Of a DNA stretch of 64,000 nucleotides, positions 19,595-45,000 are shown one piece after another (position 1 is the first letter of the stretch; every line of letters begins with the position of its first letter). Origin of the DNA: Perna viridis (taxonomy: Eukaryota); contig CM074518.1 in assembly GCA_037379345.1 (NCBI GenBank), forward strand, positions 18,910,001 through 18,974,000, in the 5' to 3' direction. The notes beneath the pieces are model-generated. The model saw nothing but the letters and a program-made list of their open reading frames with translations. It was not told where the DNA came from and did no database searches. Position numbers and translations under genes: made by a program.

Positions 19595-19622
19595 TTACTT
19601 ATCGAACTTCGTGGCAATTTGT
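19595..19622 (-). CDS. Candidate terminal exon 20 (..R-QIATKFDK*)
   Basis: Good acceptor TCTTATTGTTCTCTGTAG. Phase 2 joins the donor at 20097 and gives a short in-frame C-terminus. Confidence 0.45.
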
Positions 19623-19696
19623 CTACAGAGAACAATAAGAAAACATTTAACAGTAGAGATTAACGGTAAGGTTTTAATTCTTGTTCCTTCAACCAA

Positions 19697-19828
19697 TGAT
19701 ATTTCCATCAAGTATTAAATATTCTCCACTCTCCGTCATATGATATTTCCTTCAAGTATTAAATATTCTCCACTCTCCGTCATGTGATATTTCCATCAAG
19801 TATTAAATATTCTCCACTGTCCGTCATA
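19697..19828. repeat. 44-bp tandem repeat, 3 copies
   Basis: TGATATTTCCATCAAGTATTAAATATTCTCCACTCTCCGTCATA-like units at 19697, 19741 and 19785. Confidence 0.9.
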
Positions 19829-20092
19829 TGCTTAACACATATGTTTTAATAGCTTCGCCTAATTTAATCAGCATTTCAGGCTTGATTCATTTAGACCAGC
19901 ACATCATATTAGCTCGAGTTTACATATAAATTCTTAATGTTTAAAACTTTTAACGTTGCAACTTATTTTATAGTTATCAGTAAGAAGAATCTAGGGAAAC
20001 TTGTTTTTTGTGCAGTGATCGACCAGTGGTTTGTTGTGTGTGTGTGTGACCTTAATGATATTATATAAGAAAGTTCTCACAATTATCACCAC

Positions 20093-21052
20093 TTACCGAA
20101 CTTTGTCATCTCTATCATGACGCCGAATTCTCTCGGTGTGTTTCATTTTATCAGAGCTCGAGGTGTTACCAGGCCAGACAGAATGCTCAGATGGATAAAC
20201 GGTCGGTGGTGTCGATGGAATTGAACGTTCAGGATTTTCAAACTCGTTGGTAAAAATATAATCCGAACTGAATACAAGTTTTCCAGGATGAGATTTATCA
20301 CCTATATATTCACTTATGTTCATATTGGATGGACATGGTTCGTAATGGGGGGCTATTGGTCTATTATACACACAAGATTTATTCAAATTGTTTTGAGGCT
20401 GGGGCTTACTAGGAAGACCATATACTTCAGGACGTGGTATTTGATACGGAAGGTCATCCCTCGTCGATTTACTTTCATTCTGAATAGAGAAACCTGCATT
20501 CTCGTACTCAAATGAACCAGGGACATCTTCAAACACGGGCGACAGCATAGGCCCAGAGTCTTGACCACTTGAACCTGGCATTGGGTACCCGGAATCTCTC
20601 CGTTTGAACTCTTTTCCTCTTTTCCTAGGTTTCTTGTTTGATTTATATCGGCGAGGTAAGTTTTGGTCATGTTGATGACCGTCGTTTTTCTCCGGTACGT
20701 TGAATGCCGTGGCCTCTGTCTCAAAGAATATTTCATCCAAGTAACTTTCAGGCATCCCTAGCAGGTGCGTTTTGCTCGTTCCTTTTATATCAAAGTTTGG
20801 ATTCGTTTTAGGAAACATTTTATCTTCTTCATCAGAATATTGATTAGTAGGCGGATTGAAGCGAACATTTTTAGCAAGAGGACGTAGGTTAGTATCATCT
20901 GCATCAGTTAAGTTTCGAAGGGAAAAATTGTCGTCCGTAGCAAAAGAATAGTTGTCATCGTTTGACTCATACGGACGTTTATACGAGAACGAGGCCGTAG
21001 ATGATCCATCAAGTGACCCCTTTTCTGTATCAAGGCGTTCTGTGTCGTCATG
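20093..21052 (-). CDS. Exon 19: cytoplasmic tail (HDDTERLDTEKGSLDG...RHDRDDKVR*)
   Basis: TATTTCAG acceptor, phase 0, open and in frame with ORF 20093..20818. The TAA overlaps a perfect donor (CG|GTAAGT). Confidence 0.85.
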   Translation of the reverse strand, partial: HDDTERLDTEKGSLDGSSTASFSYKRPYESNDDNYSFATDDNFSLRNLTDADDTNLRPLAKNVRFNPPTNQYSDEEDKMFPKTNPNFDIKGTSKTHLLGMPESYLDEIFFETEATAFNVPEKNDGHQHDQNLPRRYKSNKKPRKRGKEFKRRDSGYPMPGSSGQDSGPMLSPVFEDVPGSFEYENAGFSIQNESKSTRDDLPYQIPRPEVYGLPSKPQPQNNLNKSCVYNRPIAPHYEPCPSNMNISEYIGDKSHPGKLVFSSDYIFTNEFENPERSIPSTPPTVYPSEHSVWPGNTSSSDKMKHTERIRRHDRDDKVR

Positions 21053-24000
21053 CTGAAATACGATTCCAAATTACCATATGCTAATCATTACATATTACGA
21101 AAAATTCAAAAATAAAGTATTCTGTTTTTCTGGCTAGGCCATGTCATTTAAGTTATGTACATCACATTTCAGTATTGAAAATTTCTAAAACATCAGTGGA
21201 ATATCATTGCAAAATCTTTCCCCTTATGATTTTCAATCGTAAGTAAACGATCCGAGACAAATAATTAATTTAAAAACTCTATATTTAAAACTTTCATCGG
21301 ATACATGTACGTTACCCTATCATGACTTATGTAACTTAGCATATACATGAGAACACGAAAAGTATGTAGAACTGAAATCTCATTAGATAAGACAAAGACA
21401 ATGCAGAAAGAAAAAAAAAAACGCACGGAACAAATATTTGATAATCAACCTATTCGGACGATGGAACACAAGGACCAGATCTACTAGAAAACTATTAATA
21501 AAATAGGAGATGTGGTATAATTGCCAAACGAATGTGGCATCCTCCAAATGCCAAGCAACGACCAATCCACCAAATATCAAGCAACGACTAATCCACCAAA
21601 ATGCCAAGCAACGACCACTTAAACTTCTACAGGTCACCACACCGTCTTCAATAATGGGCAAAACCCATACCATAAAGCAAGCCGTAACAGGTCCAAAAAT
21701 TACTGAAAACCACTATGATACCTTCCGAGCTTAAATTCAAAACCCCTGTCTTTTTATAATTAAACTGTACAATGCTTAAATGTTTGTCGCTTACCCCTGT
21801 TATTTCCCATGAACGGGTATTAATGTGAATATATAAGAAAATTATAGTTGCTATAATAGCTAGACCCGAAGGTACAGCAACTAAGATGATAATTAAAGGT
21901 CCATCAAAGTCACTCCAGTCCACGCCAACATCTGGTGATGGTCTCTGTGTTACTGCCACGATGGGCTTTGCCACCTAAAACGATAGAAATACAGTTATAA
22001 GGAGATCATTGCAAGCTGCATCCTTACCGAAAAATGTCACGATAGAGCAGTAACAATATTCAATAAGTTTATTCAATGTATAGTAAGATAATCGAATAAC
22101 CGAACTTCTTGATCTGATTGAATTTAAAGAGACGAGATTGCAGTTTTACGCATAAGAGCTAGATGTTCACTATAGCATAAAGGAACTATACACCCGTGTG
22201 AAAAACATTCGTATTGCCTGATAATAATAATAAAAAACACGTTCTTACGAGAACATGTAATTACAACAAGAAAGACAAAAAATAAAATTACACACAGAGA
22301 TTAGGAGCACGAACCTTTCACACAAATAAAACCAACCAAAAAATAAAATAAAATAAAGTGAAATAAAATAAAAAATAAAGCAGGATTGGAACAGGTCCTC
22401 CGGAACCGTAAGTAGTTTTTGCTTCTTATGAGACACTTGACATGCCGCCATGCTGCCAATACAACTTGTTTAAGTTCATGGCAACAAGGGAAACACAATG
22501 ACATACTTACAGGATAACCAATAGCTGCACTCAACTGTAAATCTGACAATGTCTTGTATGTATTCTCAGCATCAGTTGCCGGAACAACGGCACCATCTTT
22601 GTATACTTCAAATGTTACATCTACCGAAATACCGTCGGTTCTCTTGATATCTGTTATCTGTAATTGAAATATTTTGGTATGCAAGACACTTGTTCATAAA
22701 TTCCATATTGATATAAATCGGTTTATCTGTTGACTTTTTGTGGATGAGATGCATCGTAAATAACGAATATTACCAGCCACAAATTTATTTCAATCAGCTA
22801 ATACTTTGTTTAAAAAGGCGTCCACTAACAAGGCATTCCTCACTGCTTCTTTTACAAAAGTGTGATTCGAACAATTAATGTTTTATGGAAGAAGGCATTG
22901 TATACATAGAAACATACCTTGACATCTACGCCAGTTCCACTTTCCCGTTTCTCCTTAGCAAATCTTTTCCGACGTGATCCACTAGCTTCAATATAACTCT
23001 TTTGAAGACCTTTCCGAAATAGACATTCTTATATTTTAATCGTCACTTATTAACATTGCAAATATACTTCAAATAATAGTCAAACCAAGAATCTTTTAAG
23101 TAAACCATTACTTTTAACTTTTTAGAGAAGGGGGATGTATATAGTCAGAGTTTTAGGTAAAGGAGGGGGCAAAACATTCTTGACATAATCACCGGTAATG
23201 ATCCGAAGTGATCCGAATTTGCTAGGGGGATTGGGGGCATGCTACCCCAAGAAAATTTGAAATCCTGCATTCTGAGGGTGTCTTGAACAATTTTTCAATA
23301 CCAATTCTGTACTGGATTTGTACATCTAATGTTTTGGTTTGAATACGTTTTTGGTTTATATTATTTCAGACATTGAAATTCTAAAAAGTATACATGTACA
23401 TACAAGACAAAGGGGAATGTGTTTGTTCATTAGAAAGCCAAATTTATAGTAATTCTTGTTTTATACACGTTGCGTTTAAGAAGGTCCTAAAAATGTACAT
23501 TATGTTATTATATCAAAGTAACGTTATTGGTGTCAACATAAATTTGTTCAATATCTTTTCATAATAATAATTGAGGATATAGACGTATACCTTCCTCAAT
23601 GTTCTTTTTGAATTCAGGACTGTTGACATCAACGTTTTCATTAACACTTAGTGTCATCATAAGTCGGTTGTCTGCAGGTGGTGTTATAGATGAAGTTGTA
23701 ACCTCGGTTGAAGACATTGTTGTAGTTGCTCTACTTGACACAGCTGTAGAAGTTGCGATAACTTCTACAGTTGATGGGGCAGTGACTGTGGCAGTTGATA
23801 TTAACTCCGATGCTAGAGGAGTCTGACTTACAGCGGTAGTTACTACGGACGTAACAATCAATGTAGATTCGTCTATAGATTCTAAATTTGGATTAACTGT
23901 TAAAGATACTTCATCCAGAGTTGAAGTCGAAGCTTCTGAAGTCCAAGATGGAACAGTCGTTGCCTCATTTACAGTTGATGTCTTGTCGATGAAAAAGGTT

Positions 24001-27000
24001 CCTTGTACAGATATTGAAGTTAAGGAGAATGTAGTTGACATTGTAGAATTTCTTTTCAATGATGTTGAATATTGACTGAGCGTAGAAAGTACCCTTGTCG
24101 ATGATGAATGTTGACTGAGAATAGAAGATAATTCTGTTGATGATGAACGTCGATCAAGTGTAGAAGGGATTTTCGGCATTGTTTGGTTGACGGTTAGAAC
24201 TGTATCTTTCAAAGATGAAGGTAAACTTGCAACAATAGTTTGTTCCTCAGATGTTGAATATTGAATAGCAATAGAGGTCGTTTCCTGCAATGTTGAAGTT
24301 GGAATAATTGTAAAAAATCCTTCCGACGCCGACGTCGTCGTACTTGATAACATTTTAGACAATGTTTCTGATGTCATTCTAGTAGGTATTATTCTATGAG
24401 TTCCTTCCGATAACATTTGTGTTTTATTGATAGAATTAGAAATGATTGAAAACGATTCCATTGATACTATGGGTGTAAAAGATAGATATGTTGTTTTTAC
24501 TTGGTCTGTTGATGAAGGGTTCAAATTGACCAATACAGAAACCAAGTCCACTGATATTGAAGTTTTAATGAATGATGAAGTAGTTTCTTGTATTATTGGA
24601 GCTGTATTGATCACAGGTGATACTCCCCTAGAGTAAGAAGAAGATGTTAAAGATATATCTGAAGTTGTCAGTATTTCACTAACAGAAAAAGATAGTTCTG
24701 TATAAGGCATCTGTATATTTGTAGAGGAATATACAACTTCAGATGCTGCCGAAGTTAAAATAAGTGCTAAAGTCGACGCCTCTTTTTCTGTTGCAGTAAA
24801 AGCAGGACTAGATGGAAACGAAAAACTAAAACTTGAAGGCAGTGAATTAATGATTGATTTTCTTATTGATTCGAATGTTGAAATACTGCCTATTAACTCT
24901 GATTTAAATGGAGATACTTCAAAAGTTGTATTTAAGCCAGGTACGTCAGACAGTAGTGTCAAAACATAACTATTTACTGGAATAGTGAAAACATCTAATG
25001 TCTTTGATGTTTTATCAATAGAGGGTAAACCCACTACTGAGTTCAATGTTCGATTTAGATTAAGACTAAACTCTGAAGATGTTACTTTTTCTGTCGTCGA
25101 TATTATTTGTAACTTAGAAGATGCAACTAAATCTGATGAAAGACTTGTCGTTTTCTGTACAACAGAAGAAAATAAGTCTGATGTAGCTTTCAGTGGGTTT
25201 AATGATGACAAACCCCATGAGAAAGCTGTTGTCGATTCCGTGTTTTGGATTGTTGTGTGGAAAACAGAGGATAGATTTCTTTGAACGCTGGATGTAAAAC
25301 TGTTGAGGCTTATTGTGGAAGTTGTCATTTCTGTTGATTCTGAAATCCAACTTAATGAAAAGGTTTCCAGTAATGATGTTACTGAGACTTGGTTGATTGA
25401 ACGAAACAACGACCTAGGTGTTACAGTTGATAAGTAATTAGGTTCGGAAAATAGTAATGTATTAGATGTTTGCAGTCCCTCACTTGGAAAAGTAAATATC
25501 GTTCCGATCAAACTTGAACTGTCCGTTTCAGTATCACTTGAGTGCAAATTTTTAGCTGAAGTGCTCATAGGTAAAAAGTCAAACGACGTTGTATTTAATA
25601 TTCTTGTGGAAAGGTTCGAAATGTCATTGATTAACAGGGTGTCCATCGGTGAAATTGAGAAATATAATTTAATACCAGACGATTCAACATATGAGGTTTT
25701 AACGGTAGTCTTTGTTAAAGGTTCTCCTATTGCAGATGATGTGGACACGGCAAAGTGTGATATTGCAAAATCTGTGTTGTTTAAAACTAACTGCGATTCT
25801 AAAGCAATGCTAGTTCTTAAGGTGGTAGGAATTTGTTTAGATTTTGATTTAAATGCATGAGGTGAAACTAGGTGTGTGAAATCAGGAGTGGTTTTGATGT
25901 AAGTGGCAACCTGTGTTGCCGTCATTTGAATAAAACTCCTGACGTCTGACGGTCCTGAAATTACTGCCACAACATTCACGACCTACAAAGAAAGAACATA
26001 TATACTTTTATATGGTTCCTTTAAGAGCATATGTATACAGCAAATTATTATTTATTTGAATTAATTTCGGTGTTGTGCACATTTTCGAGGTTTCCCGGGC
26101 AACTCTTATATGTAGATTAACTACTGATATCATTAACCAATGGGAAACGGGAACATCACACTACCATTAACATCTAAAAACCCGATATTCAAAATGACAT
26201 AAGAGCCAGACTATCTTATACCTTATTTGCCGTGCGTTTGCAGCAAAACAAAGCTTTAAAAAGAATCAGACAAATGTGAAAAAAAAACAGAAACAGTCAT
26301 GTCAAAATCCCATCGATCTGACAATATTACTTCACTCAAGGATAATAAAGGTCCATTATTAGGTCCCTGCGTCACTGCATTTGTTTAGAAATCTTTCAAT
26401 AAAATGTTAGAAACAAATTATTTTTTTGACAGAATTATCTGTCCCTGAAATGTTCATTTTAATGCATTTCATTGAAATTATAACTCGACCAAAGTGATTT
26501 TGAAAATCTTGTCTTTTTTTTTTTTCATTCTGATGCAGCAAATATTGTTTTGTTTTCATAACATGTTTCACCAACTGTCTGATTCTTAAAAAATGACACT
26601 GAAGCACATTTCGGATTTCGTTTCAAATCTTTCACCTACCGGATAACCTATGAGTTTACTGAGTTCCACAGATGACAACTTGTTGAATATTACTTCTGCT
26701 TCCTCTGCTGGTATAATGATACTTTGGTTGTATACTTTAAAGAAGATGTTAACCTTGCCATCTGCATTCCTTTCTATCCCTGTTATCTGTAAGGTAGGTG
26801 TATAAAAATTGCACATAAGGATAATATTTGGCATTTAAAAAAAAAAATAAGTTGTCAAAGTTTTCTAGATGAAAGGTAACGACAAAACAGTACGGTGAAT
26901 GTTAAAAGAATGCCCAGAAAAATTATGTATAAAAGATAAAGAAATTTAAAGAGGATTGAAATTTGTAACTTCGTAAATGTACAACCTTCACTTCGATTTC

Positions 27001-30000
27001 GTCGCTTGATTGTCTTTTGATTCTTGCAGAGCGTTTTCGTCTGGTAACAAGTGCCTCTAAGAAGCTTTGTCTAAGACCTATGGCAAAATTAAAACATTGC
27101 AATAATATGATACTAAACAGTGCAAGTTTTGTTTCAAAATTGTTAGTAATGTATCACCAATTCTTCAATTCACGAAGACCATTGGAAAACAGTATACAAG
27201 GTATTCACAATGTTTAACACTGCTAAATATGCATCAGCTAAGACAGTCATTAATATTCATAGTAAGAATAAGTAATAGGTTTGATTTATAAAGGATATGG
27301 AATCTGTGACTGATCTCCTATTGTTGTGGGACCTTGCTGAATGTGTGTTTACACTAGCTTGTTGTTAGGGCGACCTCTGAAGGTATTTGCTGTTTTTTTT
27401 AAATAAAATTATACGTTTGCTGTTTTTCAACGTATCCGTTCTTTTTTCTATCATGTATCTGAATAAGTACATTTAAATGAAATTTACGGAAAACATACCT
27501 TCTGCAACTTGTTGTTTGAACAAAGGATCTGTGATATTTATGTTCGTTGCTACATTTAAAGTTAATACCAATCTATTATCTGTATGAACTATACTGCTGG
27601 TTGACGTTGATTTGCTAGTAAATCTATCGTGTCGATTAGCTGTTGGATGTAGAACTGTTGAGGAAACGAGAATCTGCTGTGTTTGTGATCTTGATACGTT
27701 AGCGGAGTCAATGGACGATGTCTTTATTAAATTCATCGTCGATTCAAGACTTGAGAGTTGTTTTGACGATGCTTGCACCAGTATAGAAGATGTATGCAAC
27801 ATTTCTGCTGTATTATTCTTAATGGAATGTAAAGTTGTTGTTGATAGATTTTCGACCGATGTCATGCTAAAGACTCCTGGTATAACTGTGCTAGACATAT
27901 TGGACCGTCGCATAGTTTTCACTGCAGAGGATTTAAATACTGGCATGCTTCTTGTCGTTATTGACGAGACAGTATGCAATACATTGGTCTTTAATAAAAC
28001 ATCGGATAATGATAAACTCATTACAGGAGAGATTGTGAAAAAAGAAAACCCTAGCATTGATTTATCTGCCATCTGTGATGATTTCAATATTGGCATGCTG
28101 GTCAAAAATGGGGTTTGAAACAGTGATGACGTTAGGATTGGCGTAACAAAGAAATGCATTGTAGATGTTGATAATCTTTTTAACCTTTGCGTTCTAGTTG
28201 TAAAATAAGACGGCAAATCTTTCGCTGTGGTTACTGACGTTTTCGACATTCCAAATGAAGACCTGCTTGAAACTAGTACAGAGTTAGACATTGAAGCCGA
28301 TTCCAATACTTGCGTGGTTGTCATGTTTTCTATTATTGAAGACTCGAATGTTGGTGTACTTGGTGATATTGACGACCTGGGTATAGAACTATTGAAAACA
28401 GATGAAACCGGAATATCTGTCATGGTAGTTGATTCAGACACTGGGATATTTGTCAATTTTAAGGCATCAGATGACCATAAAAGAGACGATTCAAACAGTA
28501 ATGATTTCTCAAATCCTTGCATACTGGACAACAATAGTGATATTGTTTTAAGTTTAGACATTTCTTTGGTTGTGATTTGTGGTAATTCTATTGAAATATT
28601 AGACTCAATGAATGGTTCAGTATTCGACATGCTAATCTCTGGTGAAAATAGAGACACCGACATACTGGTAACGATTACTTCAGTGTTTGGCTTTTTTGAA
28701 ATTGATAACTTTTCGGAGGTCTGCAAAATCGTCGAACCCAAGGACTGAAACATAGACATACTTCCAGTATGTAATGTTTCGGGCATTGATACAATTTTGT
28801 CTGCTGAGGATTTGAATTTTGTTTCGGTTGTGGACGGTGAGGTATGGAATGTAAGTATACTGCTTTTTGGGTGGAAATTTGGATTGATACTGAGTGATGA
28901 AACATTGTTGAGCAACGGAATACTGGAAAGTATGAAAGATTCGGAAATTGGTACAGCCAATGCCGACGATATTATTGATATCGGCATACTTGACAAGACG
29001 GGAGTTGAGAGTGATGGCCAGATATTTGATGATACCAAATATCCCGACTTTCTCACTGAGAGTGACTCATAATTAGCTATTGACGTTATGAGTGGTCCCG
29101 TTCCTGACGTTAATCCTCTTATTGACTGTGACTGTCTCGTATGGAGCCATTCTGTCTCAATAAACTCACTCAATGAGGTTTTAAAAGTGGATTGGACGAT
29201 TGAGGGGTTGATATATCCTACCAAAGTTGTTAGTGAAAGTGTTGACACTGGAATTGACTTCTTTATATTTGTAGATGATCCGAACTCGAGCATAGTCGTT
29301 GATTTCACTGATCCCGGCATGATTATTGATAATGATGTAAACAGTGTAGTGACATTTGATTGCAAGACTGCTGATGCCGCAAGCATTGATGGAAAAGTAA
29401 CCAAATCAGTCGGAAAAGTACTGTTTAATGAAAGCAATTCTGACTGAATCTTTGATGTTATTTTTGTTTCTGTTAGCATTGCAGTGCCTGTAAATGTTCT
29501 TGTTACAGACTGAACTGTTTGTGTCCGTATATATTCGGAGCTAAATATTGGATTTGGGTCGAGTAATTCAGAATAAATCGTTTGTGATGATTCTAACTCG
29601 AATTGTGACTCCTTAATTAAATCTGTCAAATGTTTTGTTCTGAATGTTTGTAGAATCGAGTGAAACTTTGGAGTTGAATTGAACGATCCTGATATGATAG
29701 ATGAATATAGTGAAGACTTAGTCATCAATGTTGAAAGTACTGATTTTGACCAAAGAAATGTTGAATTGAAATTCTCTGATTGATTTCTTATCACTGATGA
29801 AGATAATTCAAGCATTGGTGATGTAAACAGCAAACGTGACTCAAAACTGTGTGGTTTAATTTGTGATTGTGAATCTAACTTTCCTGCAGATTTACTGGAT
29901 CCAGACTCTAAAAAGAGTGTTGTAGTGCCCGACTCTTGGCTTGGTACCGATGAAAATGATTCCGAATCTAGCATAAGTGTCGAATGAAATATTTCAATTG

Positions 30001-33000
30001 GAGAGAGTGATTCCAAATTAAGCGTTGGTGATGGGGTTACAGAATCAGAAATAGATAATGCTGAATTAAGCGCTGTCGATGCAGGCGTTGATGCTAGAGT
30101 TAATAAATGTGACCCTTCATTAATTGTTGATTCTAAACTAGGCGCAAGTGATCCTGACCAGATCGACAATACTGAAATGAGTGATCTTAACTTGGAGTGT
30201 GATATTGAGGTTGGTGATCCAAGTATCAGTGCTGATGTAAGATTATGTCTTTGTGTTGATGGAGGAAAGTCTGACTCCAATCTTGGTGTTAAAACTAGTG
30301 CTTTTGACACAAACATTGGCATTGAAGTAAATAATTTTGACTCCAACATTAGTGTTGATCCTGATTTCAGTTTTTGTGGCAATGTGAATTGTCCTGAGTC
30401 AGCCGTTGACTCAAGTATTGGTAATAATGTGACTGAACCAGAACCTTGAATTGCTTTTGAGGTCAGCGATATTGACTCAAGCGTTGATGTTATATTAGTT
30501 TGATCGGATCTAGTTATAGATGTGGACTCAAATGATGCTGAATTAAGATTTAATGCTGTTTTGAGTGTGTCTGGCCAAAGAACAGACATTGAATTTGGTG
30601 AAACTGTTTGAATAATTGATTTTGATAAAAAATGTGATCTTGAATCGTACATTGTTGTCGAAATTCTTGGTGTTGACTCAAAAGACGTTGAAAGCCTTGA
30701 ACTTCGCATCACGTATGATGTATATAACATTAATTCCATAATGCCAATCGATCCATATCCTGACTGACTGTTTTGGGTTGTCAAAAAACTACTAACATCT
30801 AATGATCTAATCCCTGCTGCAGTTACTGCCTTAACAACCTGAAGCAAACAAACAACTATTTATGTTTTGAATCCTAAAATACCCACATTTTCTGCTCTGT
30901 TAATAAAATTGATTTAAGTTTCAGAATAGTTTTAGTATAATTTAAAAATAAACACATTCAATGAGATGTCCTTTGCTATCAAATTTAAACTAGGAACCAT
31001 TGACATTTAAAAAACAAATGCATCCACATTATTGGTACAAAAATGTACTGTTCACAGACTATATCAATTTATTCTTTTCTATGCCAGAGCTTGCCGAAAC
31101 TACGCAGACTTTTTGTATTGCACTAGAACTCTAACAAATAGACTTCTGGAACCGGGGTATGTTGCTACAAGATTGAAGTAATCACTACAGAAGTTCTATG
31201 GTCGTCATCATGAACTCACGGATCGTTATGGTGTATCCATCTGCACCATGAAAACTGATTTATTCAACGGGTCATAGGTTTCCATTCCTCGTTTGTCTAC
31301 CCCGGACTGGACTTTTTATGAGCAACTCGGCGGGTGTTTCTAGAAAAGCAGAGGACGCTTACCCTACCGGTGCACCTGGTCCATGCTCCCAGTTTTTAGT
31401 GGGGTCCGAGTTGCTCATTTGCTTTTGTTACTTTGTATGTATGATTTTAGTTACTGTATGTTCTTTGTTGTGTATGTCTGTTTTCCATATCGGGTCTTTG
31501 TCCCTGGATTACATTCTTTTGATTACCGCTATAACCCTTGGTTCCCTTGATTACCCTTTCTACAAACTTTCTACACTTCGTTGGTTGTGACGTTGCTTTT
31601 ATTCAATATACTCTACAACATTCAGTAATGTACCAAAAAAAACCAAAAAAAAAAAAAAAAAAAAAACACAAACGAACAACATAAAACCTGACATGAGAAA
31701 GCATAAAACACTTACAGTGAATCCAATATCAGTGGACAGCTGATTATTTGACAGCTTTTGGAAGGTGTTGACAGCATCATTAGCCTGGACAATGGTTCCA
31801 TTGTTATAAACCTCAAATTCAACATCAACATTTGTATCTCTAGTTCTTTTAATATCTGTGACCTGTAAATCGCAGAAAACTTTATGACACAGATCTAATG
31901 GAAATAGCTAAAAAAAGTTTGGAAATAGTTAACGATAAAACGCAATATTAAGATGATAATTTTACAAACTGTTTTAGCATTATAAATAAATTGTTCCAGC
32001 ATTTGTTTCTGTATGGAATGGATCAATGGATCAAAGCAATACTAGGTATTTCCAGTAAAATTCAGTTAGTTTATTGGGACCAGAATTTAACAGATACCGG
32101 TTGTTTGCTCAGTACAGCTACTTTGTGGGGGCACATTTCATAAATCTCGATTCATTTTTCCCGCTATATTTGTTTTAATACTATTTCTGTCGCGACTGTC
32201 TCCTTTGAAATTAACGCGTGAAGTTTTAATATCAAAACTAAAACCAAACTTGTATTCCTGAACTTGTGTATATTGTGAATAAGGATATAAAAACAAACCT
32301 TAACGTCTATATCGCTCCCTACTGCTCGTCGATTCCTCAGTGATCTCTTCCGACGAACAGTCTGTGCCTCAATGAAACTTTGCTGTAAGCCTAAAATTAG
32401 TTTTTCATATATTGAATGGTGCATTTAGAAAGACAATACATAATACTTCACAGTTAATCTTTAAAACTCTATAAATTGTGTTAAATATTAAGCATTTCCT
32501 ATGTTTGCTTTGGTTTTCCATTCATTCATCAAAATGACACTAAATCAAATGGTAAAATAAAAACAAGTAATATATTTTGACATTCGTTTTTAAAGTATAT
32601 ATCATACATTATAATAAAAAAACATATCTTTTTGTATATGTATTATACGTAATTGTTTAAACCTTATGTCGTTTACTCCATATTACATGCTTTTTATCGC
32701 ATCCTAGACCTATATCGCAACCCAACTCGGAACACGTTTGAAGCATAGTTGAAATATACAATGTAACGAACATGCACGTCAAAGTCTGTATCCCATGACA
32801 TATCAATCCTCGACCTACAGGCGGTGGCCCTTTGGGTAATATAGGAGGTTTGAGTTGATATTGCATGCGATACATATTTCGACATGTTATATTCAGTATA
32901 TACTGAGTATACTTGATATACCTTTACGTTCAAGACATCTTAACAGTCTTTATCTAATCAATGTCTGTTTTATGAGACGTCTTGAATATGTTTAAATTGT

Positions 33001-36000
33001 TCTGACCTCATTTTATTAGACGTCTGAAGTGATTTAAGAGTAATCAAGGGAACCAAGGTTATAGCGGTAATCACAAGAATGCAATCCAGGGACAAAGACC
33101 AGACATGGAAAACAGATATACACAACACAGAACATAAAGTAACTAAAATCATACATACAAAGTAACAAAAGCAAATGAGCAACTCCACTAAAAACTGGAA
33201 GCATGGACCAGTGTATTATTATCAGGTGTCTTACGTGGGAACATGTTACATCATTTTAAAGTCTCTTTAAAATGTATATCGTGACACATTATCAGAGTTG
33301 TAAATGATTTATATCTATAGCTACCTTTCTCTACTTGTTGTTTGAACGTTGCACTGGAGATATCAATAGCCATAGGTACGTTCAGTGATATAACTAGTCT
33401 GTTGTCAGTAGATACAGACGATATAAGTTTCGATGTCGTTAAAACTGTTGTCATCTGTGTTGTGAATGCATTTGTTGTATTGTTCCAAATTCTTGACTGA
33501 GTAACAAAATTACGAGTTGTCAACACTGCGCTGGATTCGTTTGGCCTTGATGCTGTTGATCTTTCCACCATTGATAATGATGTCACTGATTCTAACCCAA
33601 TAAACACTGATGATAATATTGACTCTGGCTTGGTCATTAGGGGTAATGATTCTAACTGTAGCCTGAGGGTAAATGAACGCAATCCCGTGACTGGCACCGA
33701 AATTAACGTTAATAAGTCAGATTCGAGCATTGGTAATGACTGCATTGATCCTAATTCGAGCATTCGTGTAGATTTCAGTGACTCAGTCTCTACCATTGTT
33801 TCGGTTGGTGATAATGGTACTTCTAGCATGAACGCCGACATTAGTGAATCTGATTCTAAGGATTGCATCTGAAGCGTATAAGATGAGCTCCGAGACTCAG
33901 ACTTTTCCAATGGTGTAGAAAGAGACGACAGTGTTCCTGAATCCAATATTATGGTTGATAATGACGACCCAGAATGATGCCTTGGTGTCATTGATACAAT
34001 CTCCTGCAATCGTGTTGATGATAGCGATCCAGTACTAAACATTGAAGTCGACATAATCGATTCTATCTCTTCCATATGTGTAGACGACATTGTTCTAGAC
34101 TGTAACAATTGTGTGGATTGCAGCATTCTTGACAGCTGCGATGAAAAATGGTACCCTGAACTACGCATTTCTGTTGTCAATGGCAATTCAGATTCTAGTG
34201 TTAATGTTGGAATATGCGATGACAAAGTAAATTCAGCAGTTGATCGCAGTGATGAAAGCTCTTGTACTGTCCCTAATATCACTGATTCTGATCCTTGAAT
34301 TGGTGTTGATGTCAGTGATGAAATTTGTTGTACTGGTGCTAATGTAAAAGAATCTGACCTTAGTTTTGATATTGATATTAATGAAGTGACATTTAACACA
34401 GTAGTTGATTGCATATCTGACAGTAATCCTCGTTCCAGAAATGGTATTGATGACAGTAATCCTGATTCAATCATTGATTTTGATGACAGTAGATGTAATT
34501 CTGATTCAATCATTGATTTAGATGGCAGTACATGTAATTCTGATTCAATCATTGACCTTGATGGCAGTACATGTAATTCTGATTCAATCATTGATTTTGA
34601 TAGCAGTACATGTACTTCTGATTCAATCGTTGGTGTTGATGGCAGTAATTCTGATTCAATCGTTGGTGTTGATGACAATAGTCCTGGCTCAAGCATTGGT
34701 GTGGATGAGAGTAAAATTGGTTCAAGCATTGGGCTTGATGATAATAACCCAGATTCAGGCATTGATGTAAAGTATATTGATTCTAATTCAGTGAGTCGTG
34801 TCGACAACAGGGATCTTGATTCAAACATTTGTGTTGACGACAGTCGATCTAAATGTAAAACAGATTTTGACGACATTGATATTAACACATGATTAGGTGT
34901 TGATGACCGCGATGGTATTGATAATAGTGACCCTGGCTTGATCATTGGGGTTGACGACTGGGATTTTGACTCTAGCAACGATGCTGATTGCAGTGAACCT
35001 GAGTCAATTATAAATGTTGATGACACTGGCACAGACACAAACATTTGTGATGGCGATTGTAACACTAAAGTTGACCTCAATGATCCTAACAGTTGTACTT
35101 TAGCTGGTGACAGTGATTCTTGCTCCAGCAATTGTGTAGAATCGTATAATGCTGATTCTAGCGAAAATGTAGACGACAGTGCCTCGGTTTGTAACAATGC
35201 TGTGGAAGGCAAAGAACTATATGTCGAAAACAGGGATTCTGAATGAATCACTATAGGTGACGTAAGCGATATTAACCCAAACATCGGTGTTGTCAACACT
35301 GCTTTCGACATAGGTATTGGTACTTTTGAAAGGGATTTTGAATCAATTGCTGGTGTTAATGACAATGATTCTGTTTTCAGCGACAGTGTTCTAGATTCTA
35401 ACATTGAATTTGACAACACTGACCCTGCCTTTTGTATAACAGTTGATAGTGAACCTGACCCAATCGATGGTGATTCAAACTCAAGCATTGGTGTTAGCGA
35501 TACTGATTGTGAATCGATAGTTGACGATACTGGTCCTAATACTTGTAGTGCTGAAGCTAGTGAATCTTGCTCAGACATTGGTGTTGATGAGAGTGTCACT
35601 GACACCAGCATGATTGTTGATGACATTGGTCCTGACTCAAAATTTTGAAATATAGAGAGCGATTCTGATTTAAGCAGAGATATTGAAGGTAGTGATCCTG
35701 ACTCAAACACTGACTCTGCTTCTAGTGTCGAAAACTGTGATTCTGTCTCAGACATAAGTGTTGAAAGCAATGGTTCGGACACCAGCATAAGTGTTGGTGA
35801 TAAGTGTTTGGAGTTGAGAATTGATGTGAAAGAAAATTGTTCAGACACAAGCATTGTCGTTGATGACCCATATTTCTTTGTTGATGGCAGTAATCCTGAT
35901 TTGAGCATTAGCTGTGTCGACAGTGAATCTAACTCTTGACTTGACCCATACATTGATATTGAATATAGCGGTCCTGGTTCAACAAGATTTGGTTTGGACG

Positions 36001-39000
36001 AAAACATTTTTAAATCAACAATTTGTGTTGATGGCAGTAAGCGTGACATATGCGGTGGTGTTGACAAAAGTGTTTCTAACACATCTAATGATGATGACGA
36101 CAGTGAACTTGGCTCCAGCAATGATAATGACGAGACTGATAATGGCTTCAGCAATGGTTTTTGGGTCAGTGAAGTAGGCTTCAGCAATGATGACAACGAC
36201 AGTGATGTTGGCTCCAGCAATTGGATAGAGGACATTGTACCTGACTCAAATTTGGGGGATATCGACAGTGATTCTGCTTTTGACATTAGAGTCGACGACA
36301 CTGATCTTAACACTTTTGTAATTGATGATAGTAATCCTCGCTCAGATATTGGTGCTGATGACAGAGTAGATGACATAAGCACGAGTGTTGGTGATATTCG
36401 ACCTGACTCAAGATTTTGAAAGCTTGACAGTGATCCTGATTCAAGTAAAGTTTTAAATGATAGTGATCCAGAATGAAGCAGTGACTTCTGCTTTTGAGTC
36501 GTAAACAGTAATCCTGACTCAGGCATTGGGGATGATGACAATGATCGTAACACCACCATCGATGTTGACATTTGCGTATCATAGTCAATAATTGATGTTG
36601 ACAAAAGTTTGTCTGACACAACCATTGACGTTGACGGCATTAATCCTGACTTTACCAGTCTTGTCAATGGAAGTAAGCCTGATTCAAGCCTTGTGGAGGA
36701 CGATATAGATCCCGAATTCAACACTGGCCCCGATAATGATATTGACAATTGCGAGCCTGGCTCAGGCTTTGGTTTAGACATAAAAAATTCTGACTCAAGC
36801 GTAGATGTTGACACCAATTCTTGCTTAAGAAATGTTGCTGACATAGTTGATCTCAACTCAGGTATTGACGTTGATGACAGTGGACCTGAATAAAGTACTG
36901 ATATCGACGAAAGGGAATCTGACTGAAGCATTTGTGTTGACAACAATGGTTTGGACCCAACTGTTGTTGCAAAAGACGGTAATGCTTTAATTGGCATTGA
37001 CAACAGCGATTTTAATAGTAAAACTGTTGATTTTAACAATGATCCTGATGCAGAATTTTCCATTGACAGAGATTCTGACGACATCATCGGTTCAGATGAC
37101 AATAATTCTAACACTAGCATTGGTGTTGATGACAGTGATGTAGACTGGTAAATTGACATTGACGAAAGTAATACTGATTCATGCAATGACTCAAACGTTA
37201 CTGTCGATGTTTCTGAATTTAATGGTACAGTTAAAGAAAATAAACCTGATACTGGTAAAGACGACAGTGTTTGACTTGATGAAAGTAGTTCTGAATCAAA
37301 CATTTGGGATGATGTCAACAATCCTGACATCAACCATCGTGTAATTTGAATGGACCCTGATTCTAACATTGCTTTTGTATATAATTCAGATTGAATCAAA
37401 GATATTGATGTCACTAAAGCTGGTTCAAGCGATAAGGATGATGTGAATGACAATGGTTGAAATCCACTTGTTGGAGAGTTTACCAGGGACCTAGGCACAA
37501 AAGTTTCGAGAAGTACTGTATCTTTCCATAACGTTCTATCGGTTAACACTGTCTCTAGTATATGCGTCCTTGAATTTCTTGATTTCAGTATTTGGTTTGA
37601 TGTAAACAGTTTAAACCTGAGTGCGATGCCTGTCAGAGACGTCGTTGAGGGACTGGTTGTATATGATGACATATTTCCGCTAGCTGTGACCCCTTTTTCA
37701 ACCTAGACACCAAAAATAAATACATTATAATTTATTACGCAATACTTAACGCAGTTACCGTTTGTAAGCCTTATTATAAACAATAATCTATTTGCTTCAT
37801 TTTCATTAATGTATCTCTAAGATATCATTTTCCTTTAGTGGAAACTAATGTAAACTAAAATTCTATTCACCTAATTATTTAACTTGAAAAAAGCTTATTT
37901 CTAAGGACCATAACTTTAACATCTTTTGACAAACTAACCAATACCACATATGATATATTATAAACCACTTACAGGGAATCCAATAGCGGTGGACAGTTTA
38001 TCCTTTGATAGTTTTTTAAAGGTCTTCAAAGCATCATTAGCCTGGACAATGGTTCCATTGTTATAAACCTCGAATTCGACGTCAACATTTGTTTCTCCGG
38101 TTCTTTTGATATCTGTGACCTATAAAACACATGTACAACGTTTTCAGTAATATACAACACGTACAATTCAAAATTTATGCTATCGTTTTTTTTGGAAATA
38201 ACTGAAAGCAAGACCATACCAATAAAAACGGTAGAACTTTGTAAAAACTTTGTACATTTAAATGAATTAATTGTTTAAGGTGCAGAAAAAATAATTTGGT
38301 TTTTAACGCTTTATACTACGTTGAAATTAAACCTTCGGAATGCAATCCATTTCTTTTTATTATTGTTGTTTTTTATTTAGTTTTGTTTTTCACAGGTTTT
38401 TTGTCTAGTATTACATCTGTTAAAACTGTTATGGAATACTGAACATTACATTGACCCTATTTTATCTTTTCTTATATAGCTATAGACTGCAACTTAAACA
38501 CTCTGTCGACGATTCAGATGACATAACACAATTCTGTCCCCATTGTTTTCAATTTGAATATGAGCACACCTTGACTTCTACATCACTCTCTACTGCTCGT
38601 CGTTCTCTCACAGATCTCCTCCGACGGACAGTATGTGCCTCAACAAAACTTTGCCTTAAGCCTGTTAATAAAATATTCCAAATAAGTCTTTCAACTTCTT
38701 TAACGTTTTTACGATGTACTTATTATTCCGCTGGTATATAAAAACACAAATGAAACTTAACAATATAAAATTCTGATAGTAATGTTATATTCCGGTTTGT
38801 GTTCAAGTATTTAGTTTTTGTAACACCTTTTTATTTGAACTTAACTTTTTTTTATCAAAATAAAATGTCCTACCTGTTTCCACTTGTTGTATGAACTGTG
38901 GACTGTTGATATCGACATCCCGTGGTACATTTAACATTATAGATAGTTTGTTATTTGTATGTGAGGGTTGCACTGCCTCTGATATTGTTGACTTAATAGC

Positions 39001-42000
39001 GTCCATGTTAAATGATGCCGTAGAGGACGGTGTTATCAATATTGTAATTGGCGTTGAAAGGACCTCTTTGTGAGGTATCGTGTTCACTTCTGTTCTTTCT
39101 GGTGTTGATGTCACGACTATTTCTGCTCTCGCAGAAGACAACATCACTAGTTTTGATGTAGCTTTGAATTGTGTCATTGCCTTCAATGTATCTCTTGAAG
39201 TCGTCATCATAATTTGTAAATCTTTTGATGTTTTCATTGACCCTAAAGCAGCCGCGAATGTTAAAATAGAGTCTATTTGTGCACTTGTAACTGCTTCTGA
39301 TGGAATTTGTGACATCGTTGAAGACTCTTGCATAGCAATGGGTGACATTATAGGTTTTGGTGTAGTGCTGGATGCTTTTATACGCGATTGTGCAATTGTT
39401 GTTAGCACAGGTGTTGCTGTGTAAGTTGCTGAAGAGTATGTTACGGCTACAGATGAAATTATAAGTTCTCGAGTTATTGTCGATGCATCCATGTTATCCA
39501 TCGATACGGGTTTTGATTCTAATATAGCCATCGAGCTGAATACAGACTTTGATGAAGGTTGGGCTATCAATATAGGGTATGTCGTAGCAGCTAGTTGTGT
39601 CGAGCTTGGCCTAGAATCCTGGAGAGCTGTTGACATTGGCAGAGATGACTCGACCGTAAATATCGATGTTGGTTCAATCACAAGTGCAGTTGACGATGTT
39701 AGGTTTGTTGCTACTGATGAAATGTGTAGTGTCTCTAGCGTATATGTCATTAATGGCCTAGACTGAAGTGTATATGTCGAAGTTGATTTATATTCTTCTG
39801 TGACTGATGATGATTGCACAGACTCAGGTGAATTTTGTGAGGTTCTAATTGTTTTTTGAATTTCTGCTGATATTTGTCTCGACTCTTGTAAATTAGTTGT
39901 TGACTTATACTCCAGTGTTACTTCTGATGTTCCGATTAAATTAGGTAAAGAAGTTATTGCTTTTTGTGTGGATTTGGATGATGCTGTAAACTCTTGAACA
40001 GCCATGAATTTCGACATGGAGTATGATATGACTATCGATGATATATAAGGCTTTGGTGTATCAGTTAGTGGTTGGATAGATTCTGGTATAACTTTTGATG
40101 TTAAAGTTGAACCTGGTGTAGCTATAGAAGAAGTAATGTTAGTTGAATTTTTCACCGACGTAGCTGTTGGTTTCTGGTAAGATTCTAGTGTTGATGCGAA
40201 ATTTGGTATATTCCTTTGATTAGTTTTGATGTATGTTTGTAAAGAATCTAGAGCAGCTAATGCTGATGATATAGGCTCTGTTGTTATTGACGATATTGGC
40301 AAAGACTCAGAGATACCTACTGTTTGTATAACTAGTAGTTTGACAGTTGATTGTTCTAGTGTATAGCTGTTACGTACCACTGACATTGGTTCAGTAATTG
40401 ATGTTGTCAGGGGCTCAGACAGAGACATAAGTGTCGAAGAAATTGATCTTGACCTATGCGTTTGGACCAACAACAGTGTTCCGGATTCTATAAAGGATGT
40501 GGACAAAAGTAACACTGAGTCAAGCAATGGTGTTGATAAAACTAATCCTGACTGAAGTTTTTGTGCTGATGGCAATAATCGCGAATCTAGGACTTTTGTT
40601 GACATAAGTGATCCTGTGTCACGAATCGGCATGGAAGACAATGACTCAAGCATTTGGGTTGATGGTTGTGATACTGGTTCAAACACAAGTGGTGACAACA
40701 TTGATTTTGACTCGAACAGTTGGGTTGATAACAATAGAAACTTCGATTGAACCATTTGTGTCGAATGTTTGTTTGATTCAAATATTGGTGTTGACGAAAG
40801 TAATCCTGATGCTTGCATTTGCATGGAAAACGACAATTTTGACGAATGGGGTTCTATTGCTAAAATTGTTTTCGATGACAGTGAAGCTGACGTCATATTG
40901 TGTTGAGAAGACAAAAAGTCTGACGCCTCGATTAATTTTGACGGAAGAGATTCTGACGCAAAATCTGATATTGCTAATTTCGAGTCAAGCTTTGATTTAA
41001 ACATTGTTTTTGATGTTGATGATTCTGACACTTCTGTTAAAGAAAAGAAACTCGACACTGGAAACGACGGTAGAATTTCAGTCGATTGAAGTAATTCTGA
41101 GTCAAACATTAGTGATGCTGATAACGAATCTGACACAGGCTGTCGTGTTGTCTGAGAGCGGCTTTGCTCCAAGATTGATAATTCTGACACACTAGTAAAT
41201 GTTGATAGTACGGAACCTGACAGCTCCGCTGATTTTGAGTAAAGCCCATTTGTTTGAAAGTTTGACACGGACTCTGACGTTGAAAGGTGTCCTAACGTAC
41301 TGATTAAAACAGTCTCCAGAAAATGTTTTATAGAATATTCTCTTGTCAGTTCAAACTTGGTGTTAGACAGAGGTGCCGTAGATAGATAATTGTTATAGGA
41401 TGATTTAGTCACGGCAACTGTAACTCCCTTTTCAATCTGCAAAACAAGGATTAACACATATTTCATTATACAATTTTTTGCGAGGCATTCTGTATAAGCT
41501 GTAGATGTGCGTATTTTTTATTCTGACTTAAATGTCTTAAATTATGGGGAAAATAAAGTTCTGTAAATCAACTAAACTTAATGCTATAAGTCAATACCGG
41601 CATAAAATACCGAAACGTCAGAAGTGCGATGCTTCAAGCAATGGGTTGTAGTTTGTTTTTTACTTGTAGACACATTTACAAACAAACCCAAACTAAACGA
41701 AACTACATATAATAAGCCACTTACAGGAAATCCAATATTGGTTGACAGCTGATCATTTGACAGTTTTTGAAAGGTGTTCACAGCATCATCAGCCTGTATT
41801 ATGCTGCCGTTGGTATAAACCTCGAATTCGACATCAACATTTGTTTCTCCATTTCTTTTTATATCTGTCACCTGTACATTACATGTATGTAAAATTTATT
41901 GAATGATACACTTATCAATATACACATTTTTTTTCGAAAGCGTATACTGGTATACCATTGAAGAATTTCCAAAAGACAACTATGCTGTAATGTTCATATT

Positions 42001-45000
42001 CATATTGTTTGATAGCAAAATATTGTTAGCTTTGTCCTTAATATTAAGAAGTCCTTTAATAAACTTTCAATTTAACATAAGGTATGTCATGTGCAATGTT
42101 TATTCCAATTGTTTTTAATTTGTTTGTTTGTTAACGTTTCCTTAAGGGAGTTATTTTGGGGGTATTTTCATTCAAATATTCTGTGGAAGATTCAGATGAC
42201 ATTACACAATTCGTTCACATTGTTTTTCATTTGAATATGAACGCACCTTGACTTCTACATCACTCTCTATTGCTCGTCGTTTCCTTACAGATCTCTTCCG
42301 ATGGACCGTTTGTGCCTCAATGAAACCTTGCTTTAAGCCTTTGAATAAAATATGTCCAATTAATCTTTTTTTTTTTTCATCAGTTGTTACCTTACTGTTT
42401 TTAGCACGTAAAGTTGTTCAATGTTGTGTACATTATCGTAATCACTATTCAAGTTTTTTGTCTTGTATATAAAAATAAAACAATACAACATTTCACTGAT
42501 AAAAACTTCATAACAAGTCAAATAAAACAAAATATGCAATGGTAGTTTTGTAAGAGTAATCAAGGGAACCAAGATTCTAGCATAAATCAGAAGATTGTTT
42601 ATCGAGGGACAAAGACCAGACATGGAAAACAGACGGAATATAAAAAGAACAAAAGAGTAACAAAAGTAAAGAGCAACTCGGACTTCACTGAAAACTGGAA
42701 GCATGGAGCGGGTGCAACGGTTGTGTGAACTTCTTTTGCCCTTAAAAGTGTCGTCTACTGCAATTAAAAGAATTTTTATTAATATTAAAGTAAGGTTTTC
42801 CTACCTGCTTCCACTTGTTGTATGAACTGTGAACTGTAAATATCGACATCCTGTGGTACATTTAACATAATAGATAGTCTGTTGTTTGTAGGTAAGGGTT
42901 GTACAACTTTTGATAGGGTAGAATTTATGAGATCTGGTATCATCGCTGGAGTTGATTTATTAGCGTCCAAGTTAAAGGATGTTTTGGAAGATGGAGTTAC
43001 CAATATTATTATTGGTGTCGAATGGACTTCTGAGTTTAATATCGTGTTCATTTCCACTCTTTCAGTTAATAACGTTAAAAGTTCTAATGTTGCTGTCATT
43101 GGTGTTGTTGGCTTTATTGTATTATTAGATATCTTCGTTACAATAAGTGAATCTTTCATTGTTGAGAATGATACAATAGAGTCGGCATTTGCATTTGACG
43201 ATATTGCGGACTCTGATGAAGCTTGTAGCTTTGATGAAGACTGTGATGTATTGCTAGATGGTATCATAGAGTTTTGAAAATCGCTGGATGCTTTTATTGA
43301 CACTAACGTGACTGCTGTTAGCTCATGCGGTGATAATTTCAAAGACTCTACTCCATTTCTTAATATTGTTATTGTTTGAGGTGTAGCTGTCTGTAATGGT
43401 ATAGACTCTTGTGAATCTAGTTGTGCTTCCCACGTTGTAACATGCTGTTGTTCCCGTTTTAAAGAAGGTATTAACAAATGTGTATTTGTAGCCGATGTTG
43501 TCGCCTCTGTAGTTGATGTGGACATCGAAAAAGAGTCTAATGCAGTCATTGGTTGTATTTTTAGCTCTGGTTTATCAGTTGACATTTGGATGGATTCTGT
43601 CGAACTTTGGGCTTCTGTATTTGATGTAATAGCTGTAATTGGCAGCGGAGCAGCCGTTGTTGTCTGGATAGACTGTAATGTTGTTGTGTATGTTGGTATA
43701 TACTCTTGTACAGATATGGTTGATTGTATAGAGAATGATTTAAGTGCAGATATAGACGTTGATATATATTTTTGTATACCTATGGATGTCAGTGAAGGTT
43801 TAGCTAGTGTATGTGTTACGAAGCCTTTGGTAGTTTGAAGTACTATTGAAGGTGTTTGCGTAGCACTGGAAGCTGGTATTGACATCGGAACATCTCTTTT
43901 GCTACTAGTAGTCTCTTGGTGTAATGATGATGTTGTTATCGACCCTAATGAATTTGGTGTTAGTATAGACTCCGAATTTGGCATACTTAGGGATATTTGT
44001 TCAAAGACATCTGTAGCATTCGGTGATTCTTTAAAACCTTTTATTGTCGTTGATGTTAGTAAAGATTTTATCGCACCTGTTGTTAAAAGTTTGAACTCTA
44101 TGTTTTCCGTCAATGATTGCATTGCGTCTTGCGTATATGAAAATGTTGGTATTACCTTTATTTTTAAGGTTGATGGTGGTATTGACTTAACTGCATTCGA
44201 TAACGGTAAAGACGTAAATGTAGCTATAGACGTTAATTTTGATTCAAGTGCAACTGTCGATGATTGTCTTAAATCATGCATGGCTGCCGATATTGGTCTG
44301 AACTCTATTGCGGTTGTCACTGACGGTATAGACTCCAATGTAGATGTTGATGTTTGTATAGACTCAAAGCTAGCCATTGTCATTAGCATAGACTCTAGAT
44401 TGGATGATGTTTGACCAAAGGCTAGTAAATCTGTCTTTGATCTATCCGAGACTTTTGTAGCTTTCAATATTTGGCTATGATCTATCGAAGTTTCTGAAGT
44501 TCTAGACTTCAATATAAATGCTGATATAAGAGAAGACTGCGAAATTGCTGTCGATTTTTGTGCTGTGTCTGGTGTTGCTGTAGATTTTGAACGTGCTACT
44601 GATGTTGACATTGACCCAAATATACCTGGTACTGTTTGTGTAGACCAAAATGTGACTGTCGATGTTGGTAATGACTCAAATGTACCAGTTTGCGTGTGTA
44701 TTGACTCTAATGAATCTATTGATAATTGCATAGAATCATGTATGGTGGTAAAGGATATAGACTGTAGTGTAGCTGTCCTGGTTGGTCTCGTCCCTAGTGT
44801 TGTTGTCGATGTTAGTATTGACTCAAATGTATTTTTTGATGTATTAATTGTCTCCAGCGTTGCTATCGATAATTGTGTAGACTCATGTGTGAATATCGAT
44901 AATGAAAGAGGCTGTAGTGAAGCTGTCGGTGTTGGTTTTAGATATGTTGTAACTGTCGTTGTTGGCCTTGATTCTAGAGGTGTTGTCGATGTAAGCTTTG

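Follow-up and report, generated by a model that had tools for sequence, protein, structure and literature searches.

The 64,000-nucleotide window analysed here, positions 18,910,001 to 18,974,000 of contig CM074518.1 in the Perna viridis assembly GCA_037379345.1, carries a gene on its minus strand whose coding part starts with an ATG at 55987, repeats one module five times and closes with a transmembrane exon and a cytoplasmic tail. Its product is a giant type I single-pass membrane mucin of about 7,000-7,500 residues with five mucin and SEA-like modules. The repeated unit consists of a giant Ser/Thr-rich exon (2.4-5.7 kb, 33-36% serine plus threonine), an exon of 92 nt and an exon of 147 nt, and each of the five 92-nt exons encodes a loop with two basic motifs. 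We consider it fairly probable that a furin-like convertase cuts this loop in every module at one or both sites, that the two halves of each domain likely stay locked together, and that the protein is a five-module mucin related to KIAA1549.

Read in the direction of transcription (positions are those of the window, all features being on the minus strand), the gene opens with the coding part of a first exon (55945..55987), present in a spliced contig and providing the ATG and a hydrophobic, signal-peptide-like start. Exon 2 (51752..52000) encodes a Ser/Thr-rich N-terminus, and its joint to the following exon, 48477-51752, was recovered in two of four runs. The giant mucin exon A1 (42805..48477; 5,673 nt, open frame and spliced contig) ends halfway through helix 1 of SEA-like domain 1, having already encoded strand 1. 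The 92-nt exon B1 (42247..42338) adds the end of helix 1, the loop HRKR/SVRKRR/A and the start of strand 2, the 147-nt exon C1 (41725..41871) strands 2-3 and helices 2-3, and exon A2 (38874..41436) strand 4, before it continues into the next mucin segment and the start of domain 2. Every domain is assembled in this way from four exons: the last part of a giant exon, a whole 92-nt and a whole 147-nt exon, and the first part of the exon that follows.

Exons B1, C1 and A2 occur in spliced contigs, as do B2 (38570..38661, loop RRRR/SVRERR/A) and C2 (37973..38119), and the joints on both sides of B1 and B2 are directly visible. Module 3 was placed from the sequence: A3 (33325..37702) with its mucin segment and the start of domain 3, B3 (32299..32390, loop RRKR/SLRNRR/A) from its AG..GT bounds, and C3 (31716..31862). 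In module 4, A4 (27499..30838), with a mucin segment and the start of domain 4, is backed by both sequence and contigs, B4 (26986..27077, loop RRKR/SARIKR/Q) by its AG..GT bounds and C4 (26640..26786) by sequence. A5 (23591..25982; sequence and contigs) holds the last mucin segment and the start of the membrane-proximal domain, which continues in B5 (22918..23009, loop RRKR/FAKEKR/E) and C5 (22511..22657); in the contigs of all four runs, the neighbouring exons enclose a 239-nt insert that equals these two together (92 + 147). The exon at 21795..21974, which like the tail exons is joined in spliced contigs, encodes strand 4 of domain 5 along with the only transmembrane helix.

The cytoplasmic tail starts with a 956-nt exon (20097..21052), 33% identical to M. 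edulis (Mytilus edulis) and joined in all four runs. A 43-nt exon follows (19580..19622; joint 19622-20097 in all four runs), whose in-frame TAA closes a short-tail form of 6,998 residues, the form that the contigs support. A long form of about 7,456 residues is predicted from homology to Mytilus and the open frame; in the window it would use five further cytoplasmic exons (10400-10292, 9541-9302, 4729-4619, 4345-4215 and 1723-1663, matched to M. edulis) and, 24-30 kb past the window start, three more. Together these eight exons downstream of the 43-nt exon form an open long tail, and seven of them are 59-86% identical to Mytilus. The 43-nt exon has a GTAAGT donor of its own and its use ends the tail at about 336 residues; it may be a poison exon, produce a regulated short form or reflect separate expression of the conserved distal tail. 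The splicing evidence comes from contigs of four of the 24 listed runs (four studies), none of them recorded as RNA, a status that is a tool's guess; transcription is inferred from the spliced joints, with read depth left unused.

A hydrophobic N-terminus and a single transmembrane stretch at residue 6638 give the protein the type I topology of KIAA1549/UPF0606 members, and its ectodomain contains no cysteine and 60 N-glycan sequons. The mucin exons vary in length among runs, in frame, by 15 nt at 28533 and by 3 nt at 46772 (each in two of four runs); the variants listed include none in the SEA exons. Internal repeats with a period of 471 occur in A1 (44754-45617).

A first-pass annotation of the window had singled out the five 92-nt exons for their double basic motifs, and this description was confirmed: all five lie on the minus strand between AG and GT, measure exactly 92 nt, and are entered in phase 1 and left in phase 0, and the P1 arginines of the two sites are six residues apart in every module. 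Also as described, both sites match the canonical R-X-K/R-R in modules 2-4, the second only in module 1 and the first only in module 5. Eight of the ten sites thus have the canonical core, the exceptions carrying His at P4 (module 1, site 1) and Lys at P4 (module 5, site 2). The paired pattern arises in 5-46 per 200,000 shuffles of each domain, in a test whose pattern was defined after the fact and whose five copies are related rather than independent, and a single canonical site is found in 6,019 mucin residues. With the pattern so rare in shuffles, and canonical sites so rare in the mucin residues, it cannot be put down to chance.

Both sites look selected when the loops are compared. In the five modules and M. 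edulis together, site 1 has a basic residue in 17 of its 18 P4, P2 and P1 cells and site 2 in all 18, against 1 of 66 cells at the remaining loop positions. When four deep lineages are compared pair by pair, 18/18 comparisons give identical residues at site 1, 12/18 at site 2 and 11/66 at the other loop positions. Synonymous sites are close to saturation (pS 0.73-0.83 for pairs with modules 4 or 5), the P1 arginines are encoded by both CGN and AGR codons, and dN/dS among modules 1-3 is 0.25-0.34. With 35 of 36 key positions basic in spite of saturated synonymous sites, both sites appear to have been maintained. The arginines are conserved in the orthologue and, in the predicted structure, exposed, and not unconserved or buried, the two outcomes that the annotation had named as speaking against cleavage.

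Exon length and spacing do not have the special invariance that the annotation implied. The 92-nt exon is not dedicated to the sites, half of helix 1 and the first part of strand 2 being encoded in it as well, and its length is not specially invariant, the 147-nt exon being equally constant and the alignment of the five domains with two Mytilus domains having no gap column. Mean amino-acid identity across the three main parts of the domain is 0.50, 0.55 and 0.57. Modules 1-3 form a supported clade, are 71-77% identical and have intron and mucin sequence in common, and module 5 clusters with Mytilus in the tree (98/96). Tandem duplication of the three-exon unit, free of insertions and deletions, accounts for the constant exon length and spacing.

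The pairing itself extends further. A table of 25 loops (a small sample, in which some gene models may be imperfect, and which leaves out a partial Batillaria domain without its N-half and Acropora P0033, a near-duplicate of P0022) shows two or more basic clusters in all seven mytilid-type domains, always at spacing six, and in five of seven other mollusc and sea-urchin domains, at spacings of 8, 11, 21, 22 and 32/56 and never at six. Paired sites are found in none of nine cnidarian domains (six with a single site, three with none), and pairing is also absent from a paralogue in the same genome and from one further record. As pairing occurs beyond mytilids and its spacing varies there, these comparisons make it a wider trait and the spacing of six a mytilid inheritance; neither the "exactly six" of the annotation nor the exon length has a special meaning. 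The cnidarian members P0008 (residue 550) and P0014 (residue 1085) have an extra polybasic site in the mucin region, outside the SEA-like domains.

The same observations bear on the suggestion that the excised basic hexapeptides are bioactive and that graded site strength orders the release of segments. The spacing of six in all seven mytilid-type domains and the unequal canonical match of the sites would suit it. However, constant spacing follows from the lack of indels across the whole domain, and the non-basic spacer residues are unconserved. Carboxypeptidases trim basic ends, which here would leave SV, SVRE, SLRN, SARI and FAKE, remnants of two to four unrelated residues. No module lacks a canonical site altogether, and the grading is not conserved, since both sites are canonical in the Mytilus counterpart of module 5. 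We regard functional hexapeptides and ordered release as very improbable. Because its non-basic residues vary and its trimmed remnants are short and unrelated, the spacer peptide is probably waste.

The gene is most likely a KIAA1549/UPF0606 relative, a membership that profile scores support through the M. edulis orthologue. Against a Pfam cut-off of 24 bits for PF12877 (KIAA1549/UPF0606), the orthologue P0004 scores 26.8 bits and its domain alone 33 bits (E 2.9e-8); P0047 (29.9 bits) and P0060 (26.7 bits) also exceed the cut-off, and all but one of 11 aligned domains match at E <= 1. The tail appears to share motifs with cnidarian members, which score 69-98 bits on the same profile (two of the cnidarian matches at 84 and 98), and the M. 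galloprovincialis fragment P0049 matches profile positions 474-542 (E 0.018), its corresponding exon, 4729-4619, belonging to the predicted long form only. The top ESM Atlas cluster, 'SEA domain-containing protein' with PF12877 (score 0.82), was taken as a lead only.

The Mytilus orthologues are uncharacterised (M. edulis CAG2239036.1 / XP_071121016-21, M. galloprovincialis LOC143083087, M. trossulus LOC134682970). Their domain (65% identical to module 5 in M. edulis) has the same double site and spacing, and the transmembrane and tail exons are homologous. The models show one SEA-like domain, but they start within the mucin part and lack a signal peptide, so Mytilus may have more modules than they show. 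When a profile built from the five 147-nt exons was searched against 1.84 billion proteins, it gave 26 matches. Nine of these were relatives of full length, found in Mytilus, Saccostrea, Haliotis, Batillaria, Lytechinus, Hydractinia, Nematostella, in an Acropora cluster and in one more record; six unrelated repeat proteins and 11 single-exon open reading frames without the loop were set aside. The same domain and loop are found in Haliotis XP_046364164.2, Batillaria KAG5699447.1, Saccostrea XP_062613829.1 and Lytechinus XP_041472732.1, which differ in having one to three domains and the wider spacings given above; the Haliotis layout, mucin-SEA-mucin-SEA-transmembrane, resembles that of the window gene. 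Homologue searches with the P0004 domain returned Mytilus proteins only (1 of 659 and 3 of 866 candidates), the module 5 mucin segment as query matched none of 7,974 candidates, which is weak evidence, and metagenome scans for further loci confirmed none of 312 and 188 candidates. A PF12877 match on C11 of the genome was rejected, SEA exons being absent nearby.

The paralogue mentioned above lies at C8:8,625,000-8,645,000 on the minus strand and is itself of the KIAA1549 family, with a mucin exon in an open frame of 1,326 codons and transmembrane and tail motifs. It has one SEA-like domain with a single RRKR/F site, and its layout is unlike that of the window gene: its exons measure 155 and 169 nt, and an intron falls in strand 1 and none in helix 1. 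A candidate extra basic exon at C8:8638208 was not counted because its phase does not fit.

The SEA-like nature of the domains, proposed in the annotation, is supported by the model and the fold searches of the M. edulis domain. The AlphaFold model (built with 11 sequences; pLDDT 85.4, pTM 0.77) consists of a strand (6-11), a helix (21-41), a coil (42-56), two strands (57-68 and 71-80), two helices (87-94 and 99-106) and a last strand (110-116). Its best structural match is the ferredoxin-like domain of Nup54 (Z 11.1, rmsd 2.4, 96 aligned), with the membrane-adjacent domains of PCDH15 and CDH23 at Z 9.3-9.5 and the MUC16 SEA domain at Z 7.4-7.6. The 92-nt exon corresponds to model residues 30-60 and the P1 arginines to 45 and 51, within coil 42-56, where pLDDT falls below 50 at 44-46 and 48-53. 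Both sites are thus predicted from the model to sit in a disordered loop between helix 1 and strand 2 of the SEA fold. A furin site, according to PMC3281273, requires a core from P6 to P2' with flanks that are accessible and flexible; this low-confidence coil is predicted to offer such flanks.

The annotation had the basic sites replacing the GSVVV autoproteolysis of classical SEA domains. A preprint on KIAA1549 (10.1101/2025.08.18.670743) places the classical motif between strands 2 and 3; since the basic sites lie in a different loop, which is already basic in cnidarian members, nothing has been replaced. No G/SXXX motif occurs at the strand 2-3 turn in any of the five window domains. Residues 96-99 of Mytilus P0004 (model 69-72) read GSAV at this turn, in none of the window domains and perhaps by coincidence.

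That the loops are cut was proposed at the outset and is made likely by analogy with human KIAA1549, whose equivalent loop is cut according to two reports (10.1101/2025.08.18.670743; PMC13570299). A basic loop left uncut, serving as a polyanion-binding or sorting patch, would be compatible with cleavage being a prediction here and with one of three cnidarian domains lacking any basic loop, but a fixed P1 arginine with basic P2 and P4, twice over in a disordered loop, is a convertase pattern, and the preprint's finding for the human loop points the same way; we find this alternative scarcely credible. The genome contains 23 convertase P-domain matches.

In the mechanism that we favour, cleavage in each module would take place in the Golgi, as with human KIAA1549 and Notch S1. 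The second site would make the opening of the loop complete and expose a clean new N-terminus; the spacer of six residues would be waste. Cutting would yield pieces of 1,984, 928, 1,533, 1,187 and 871 residues and a stub of 82 residues before the membrane, so that the mature ectodomain would consist of five glycosylated pieces and a membrane stub joined by five links, non-covalent because the ectodomain has no cysteine. Each link would be formed by strand 1 of one piece, which the predictions keep between strands 3 and 4 of the next piece downstream, and the links might part under shear. The M. edulis halves 1-45 and 52-120 reassembled in ESMFold2 without the six-residue spacer (score 0.77 against 0.02 for the best of three controls; at least 91% of contacts shared between runs, partner pLDDT 80 or higher). 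Of solved pairs, 51 of 78 attain the pass mark, as do 2 of 108 mismatched ones (39 of 65 and 2 of 126 for eukaryotes), and a pass is expected here, as halves of one domain tend to pass through likeness to solved folds.

If the halves parted after cutting, the gene would encode a polyprotein secreting five separate mucins and leaving a signalling stub. The lack of ectodomain cysteines, the mucin size of every piece and the secretion of processed soluble KIAA1549 described in PMC13570299 would fit. Against shedding stand the predicted pairing of strand 1 with strands 3 and 4 (about 140 contacts), the integrity of cleaved Notch1 in PMC2726630, and PMC13570299, where no shed ectodomain of full-length KIAA1549 is detected. 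Overall, shedding seems decidedly unlikely.

Fail-safe processing and spacer excision are both compatible with the sequence. Removal of the spacer might itself be obligatory, for strain relief, a fixed new N-terminus or priming for release, as with a miniature C-peptide whose sequence and length are free. Both sites have been kept through saturated divergence, five of the seven other domains from molluscs and sea urchin have at least two, separated by 8-56 residues of unrelated sequence, and in the various members the last site lies about equally far from strand 2. Yet one site suffices in six of nine cnidarian domains, in the paralogue and in two of seven other bilaterian domains, modules 1 and 5 tolerate a non-canonical site, and human KIAA1549 has one reported site; an obligatory double cut is accordingly unlikely in our view. 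In a wider scenario, which we hold to be doubtful, the KIAA1549 furin loop, originally a single one, became in molluscs and echinoderms a loop with paired sites and obligatory spacer excision, and the mussel chained five such domains into one 7,000-residue mucin. This would be a six-piece filament on the cell surface with five split-domain clasps as its only links, shortened stepwise under shear until the last break exposes a signalling stub.

Several points weigh against the favoured reading of likely cleavage in a KIAA1549-related chain with locked halves. The single exons of the window fall below the PF12877 cut-off (best E 0.056, for C4), and four longer Mytilus isoforms, P0045, P0051, P0053 and P0061 (full M. 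edulis and M. trossulus RefSeq proteins), do not match this profile. The tree is poorly resolved except for modules 1-3 and for module 5 with Mytilus, and the modelled domain is that of M. edulis, to which the window domains are 43-65% identical. The second site is strongly conserved in every module, beyond what pure redundancy predicts. Furin-processed soluble human KIAA1549 is secreted without its C-terminal tag, and the authors of PMC13570299 think the ectodomain likely to be secreted, so that the halves may part. Finally, five SEA-like domains contrast with the three adjacent ones of KIAA1549.

Elsewhere in the window, introns of the gene contain high-copy repeats with very high contig depth (31080-31540, 33030-33210, 42550-42710 and 49840-50020), that at 33035-33207 matching 42551-42707, and a 29-bp tandem array of 50 copies (6818-8267) lies within an intron of the long form. 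Upstream of the gene, at 61208-57227 on the minus strand, fragmented frames resemble reverse-transcriptase retroelement copies, a label given by eye, and another of this kind is found at C8:8,654-8,655 kb, close to the paralogue.

The feature is real, selected and largely a known family trait combined with exon-block duplication; its new part is modest and consists of the paired sites in the loop and the five-module mucin-SEA chain. Our literature search turned up no paper that deals with this gene or describes paired sites in the KIAA1549 family, although the preprint's supplementary alignment from human to placozoa may already show pairs. The gene offers five natural compact variants of one domain with paired sites, suited to cleavage, reassembly and force measurements, and the comparison shows that the loop tolerates zero to three sites. 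To mussel biology it adds a giant surface mucin that is expressed and had not been annotated.

Among known systems, human KIAA1549 is the closest in design to the window protein, with a signal peptide, a long ectodomain rich in Ser/Thr, SEA-like domains that lack the autoproteolysis motif, one transmembrane helix, a long tail and a convertase motif in the helix-to-strand-2 loop, present in all five window domains. Its three SEA-like domains lack the autoproteolysis motif and the membrane-proximal one is cut at R1208MWR1211 in this loop, as shown by N-terminomics, deletion, mutation and inhibitor in 10.1101/2025.08.18.670743 and PMC13570299; the former reports the motif as conserved from human to placozoa, and the latter describes POMT1/2 O-mannosylation along with furin processing. 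By eye, the reported new N-terminal peptide aligns with the residues after the second site of the window domains. KIAA1549 has three adjacent domains and one reported site, whereas the window protein has five, 800-1,900 mucin residues apart, with every loop basic, two sites in each and about 7,000-7,500 residues in all. The layout of three adjacent SEA domains is typical of human and cnidarian members without being universal, and other molluscan members and the paralogue also depart from it; the departure marks a variant and not exclusion from the family.

Notch1 provides a second parallel, its SEA-like domain carrying two furin sites in one loop: according to PMC2726630, furin cleavage of the S1 loop follows both R1633 and R1664 and leaves the domain structurally intact, its halves still assembled. 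It differs in that its loop lies between strands 2 and 3 (10.1101/2025.08.18.670743), with a spacing of 31, in a single domain of a ligand-activated receptor. MUC1, MUC16 and dystroglycan resemble the window protein in fold, glycosylated stalk and membrane anchor, but cleave themselves at G/SXXX between strands 2 and 3, where the window domains have no such motif, and the window domains have no match to PF01390.

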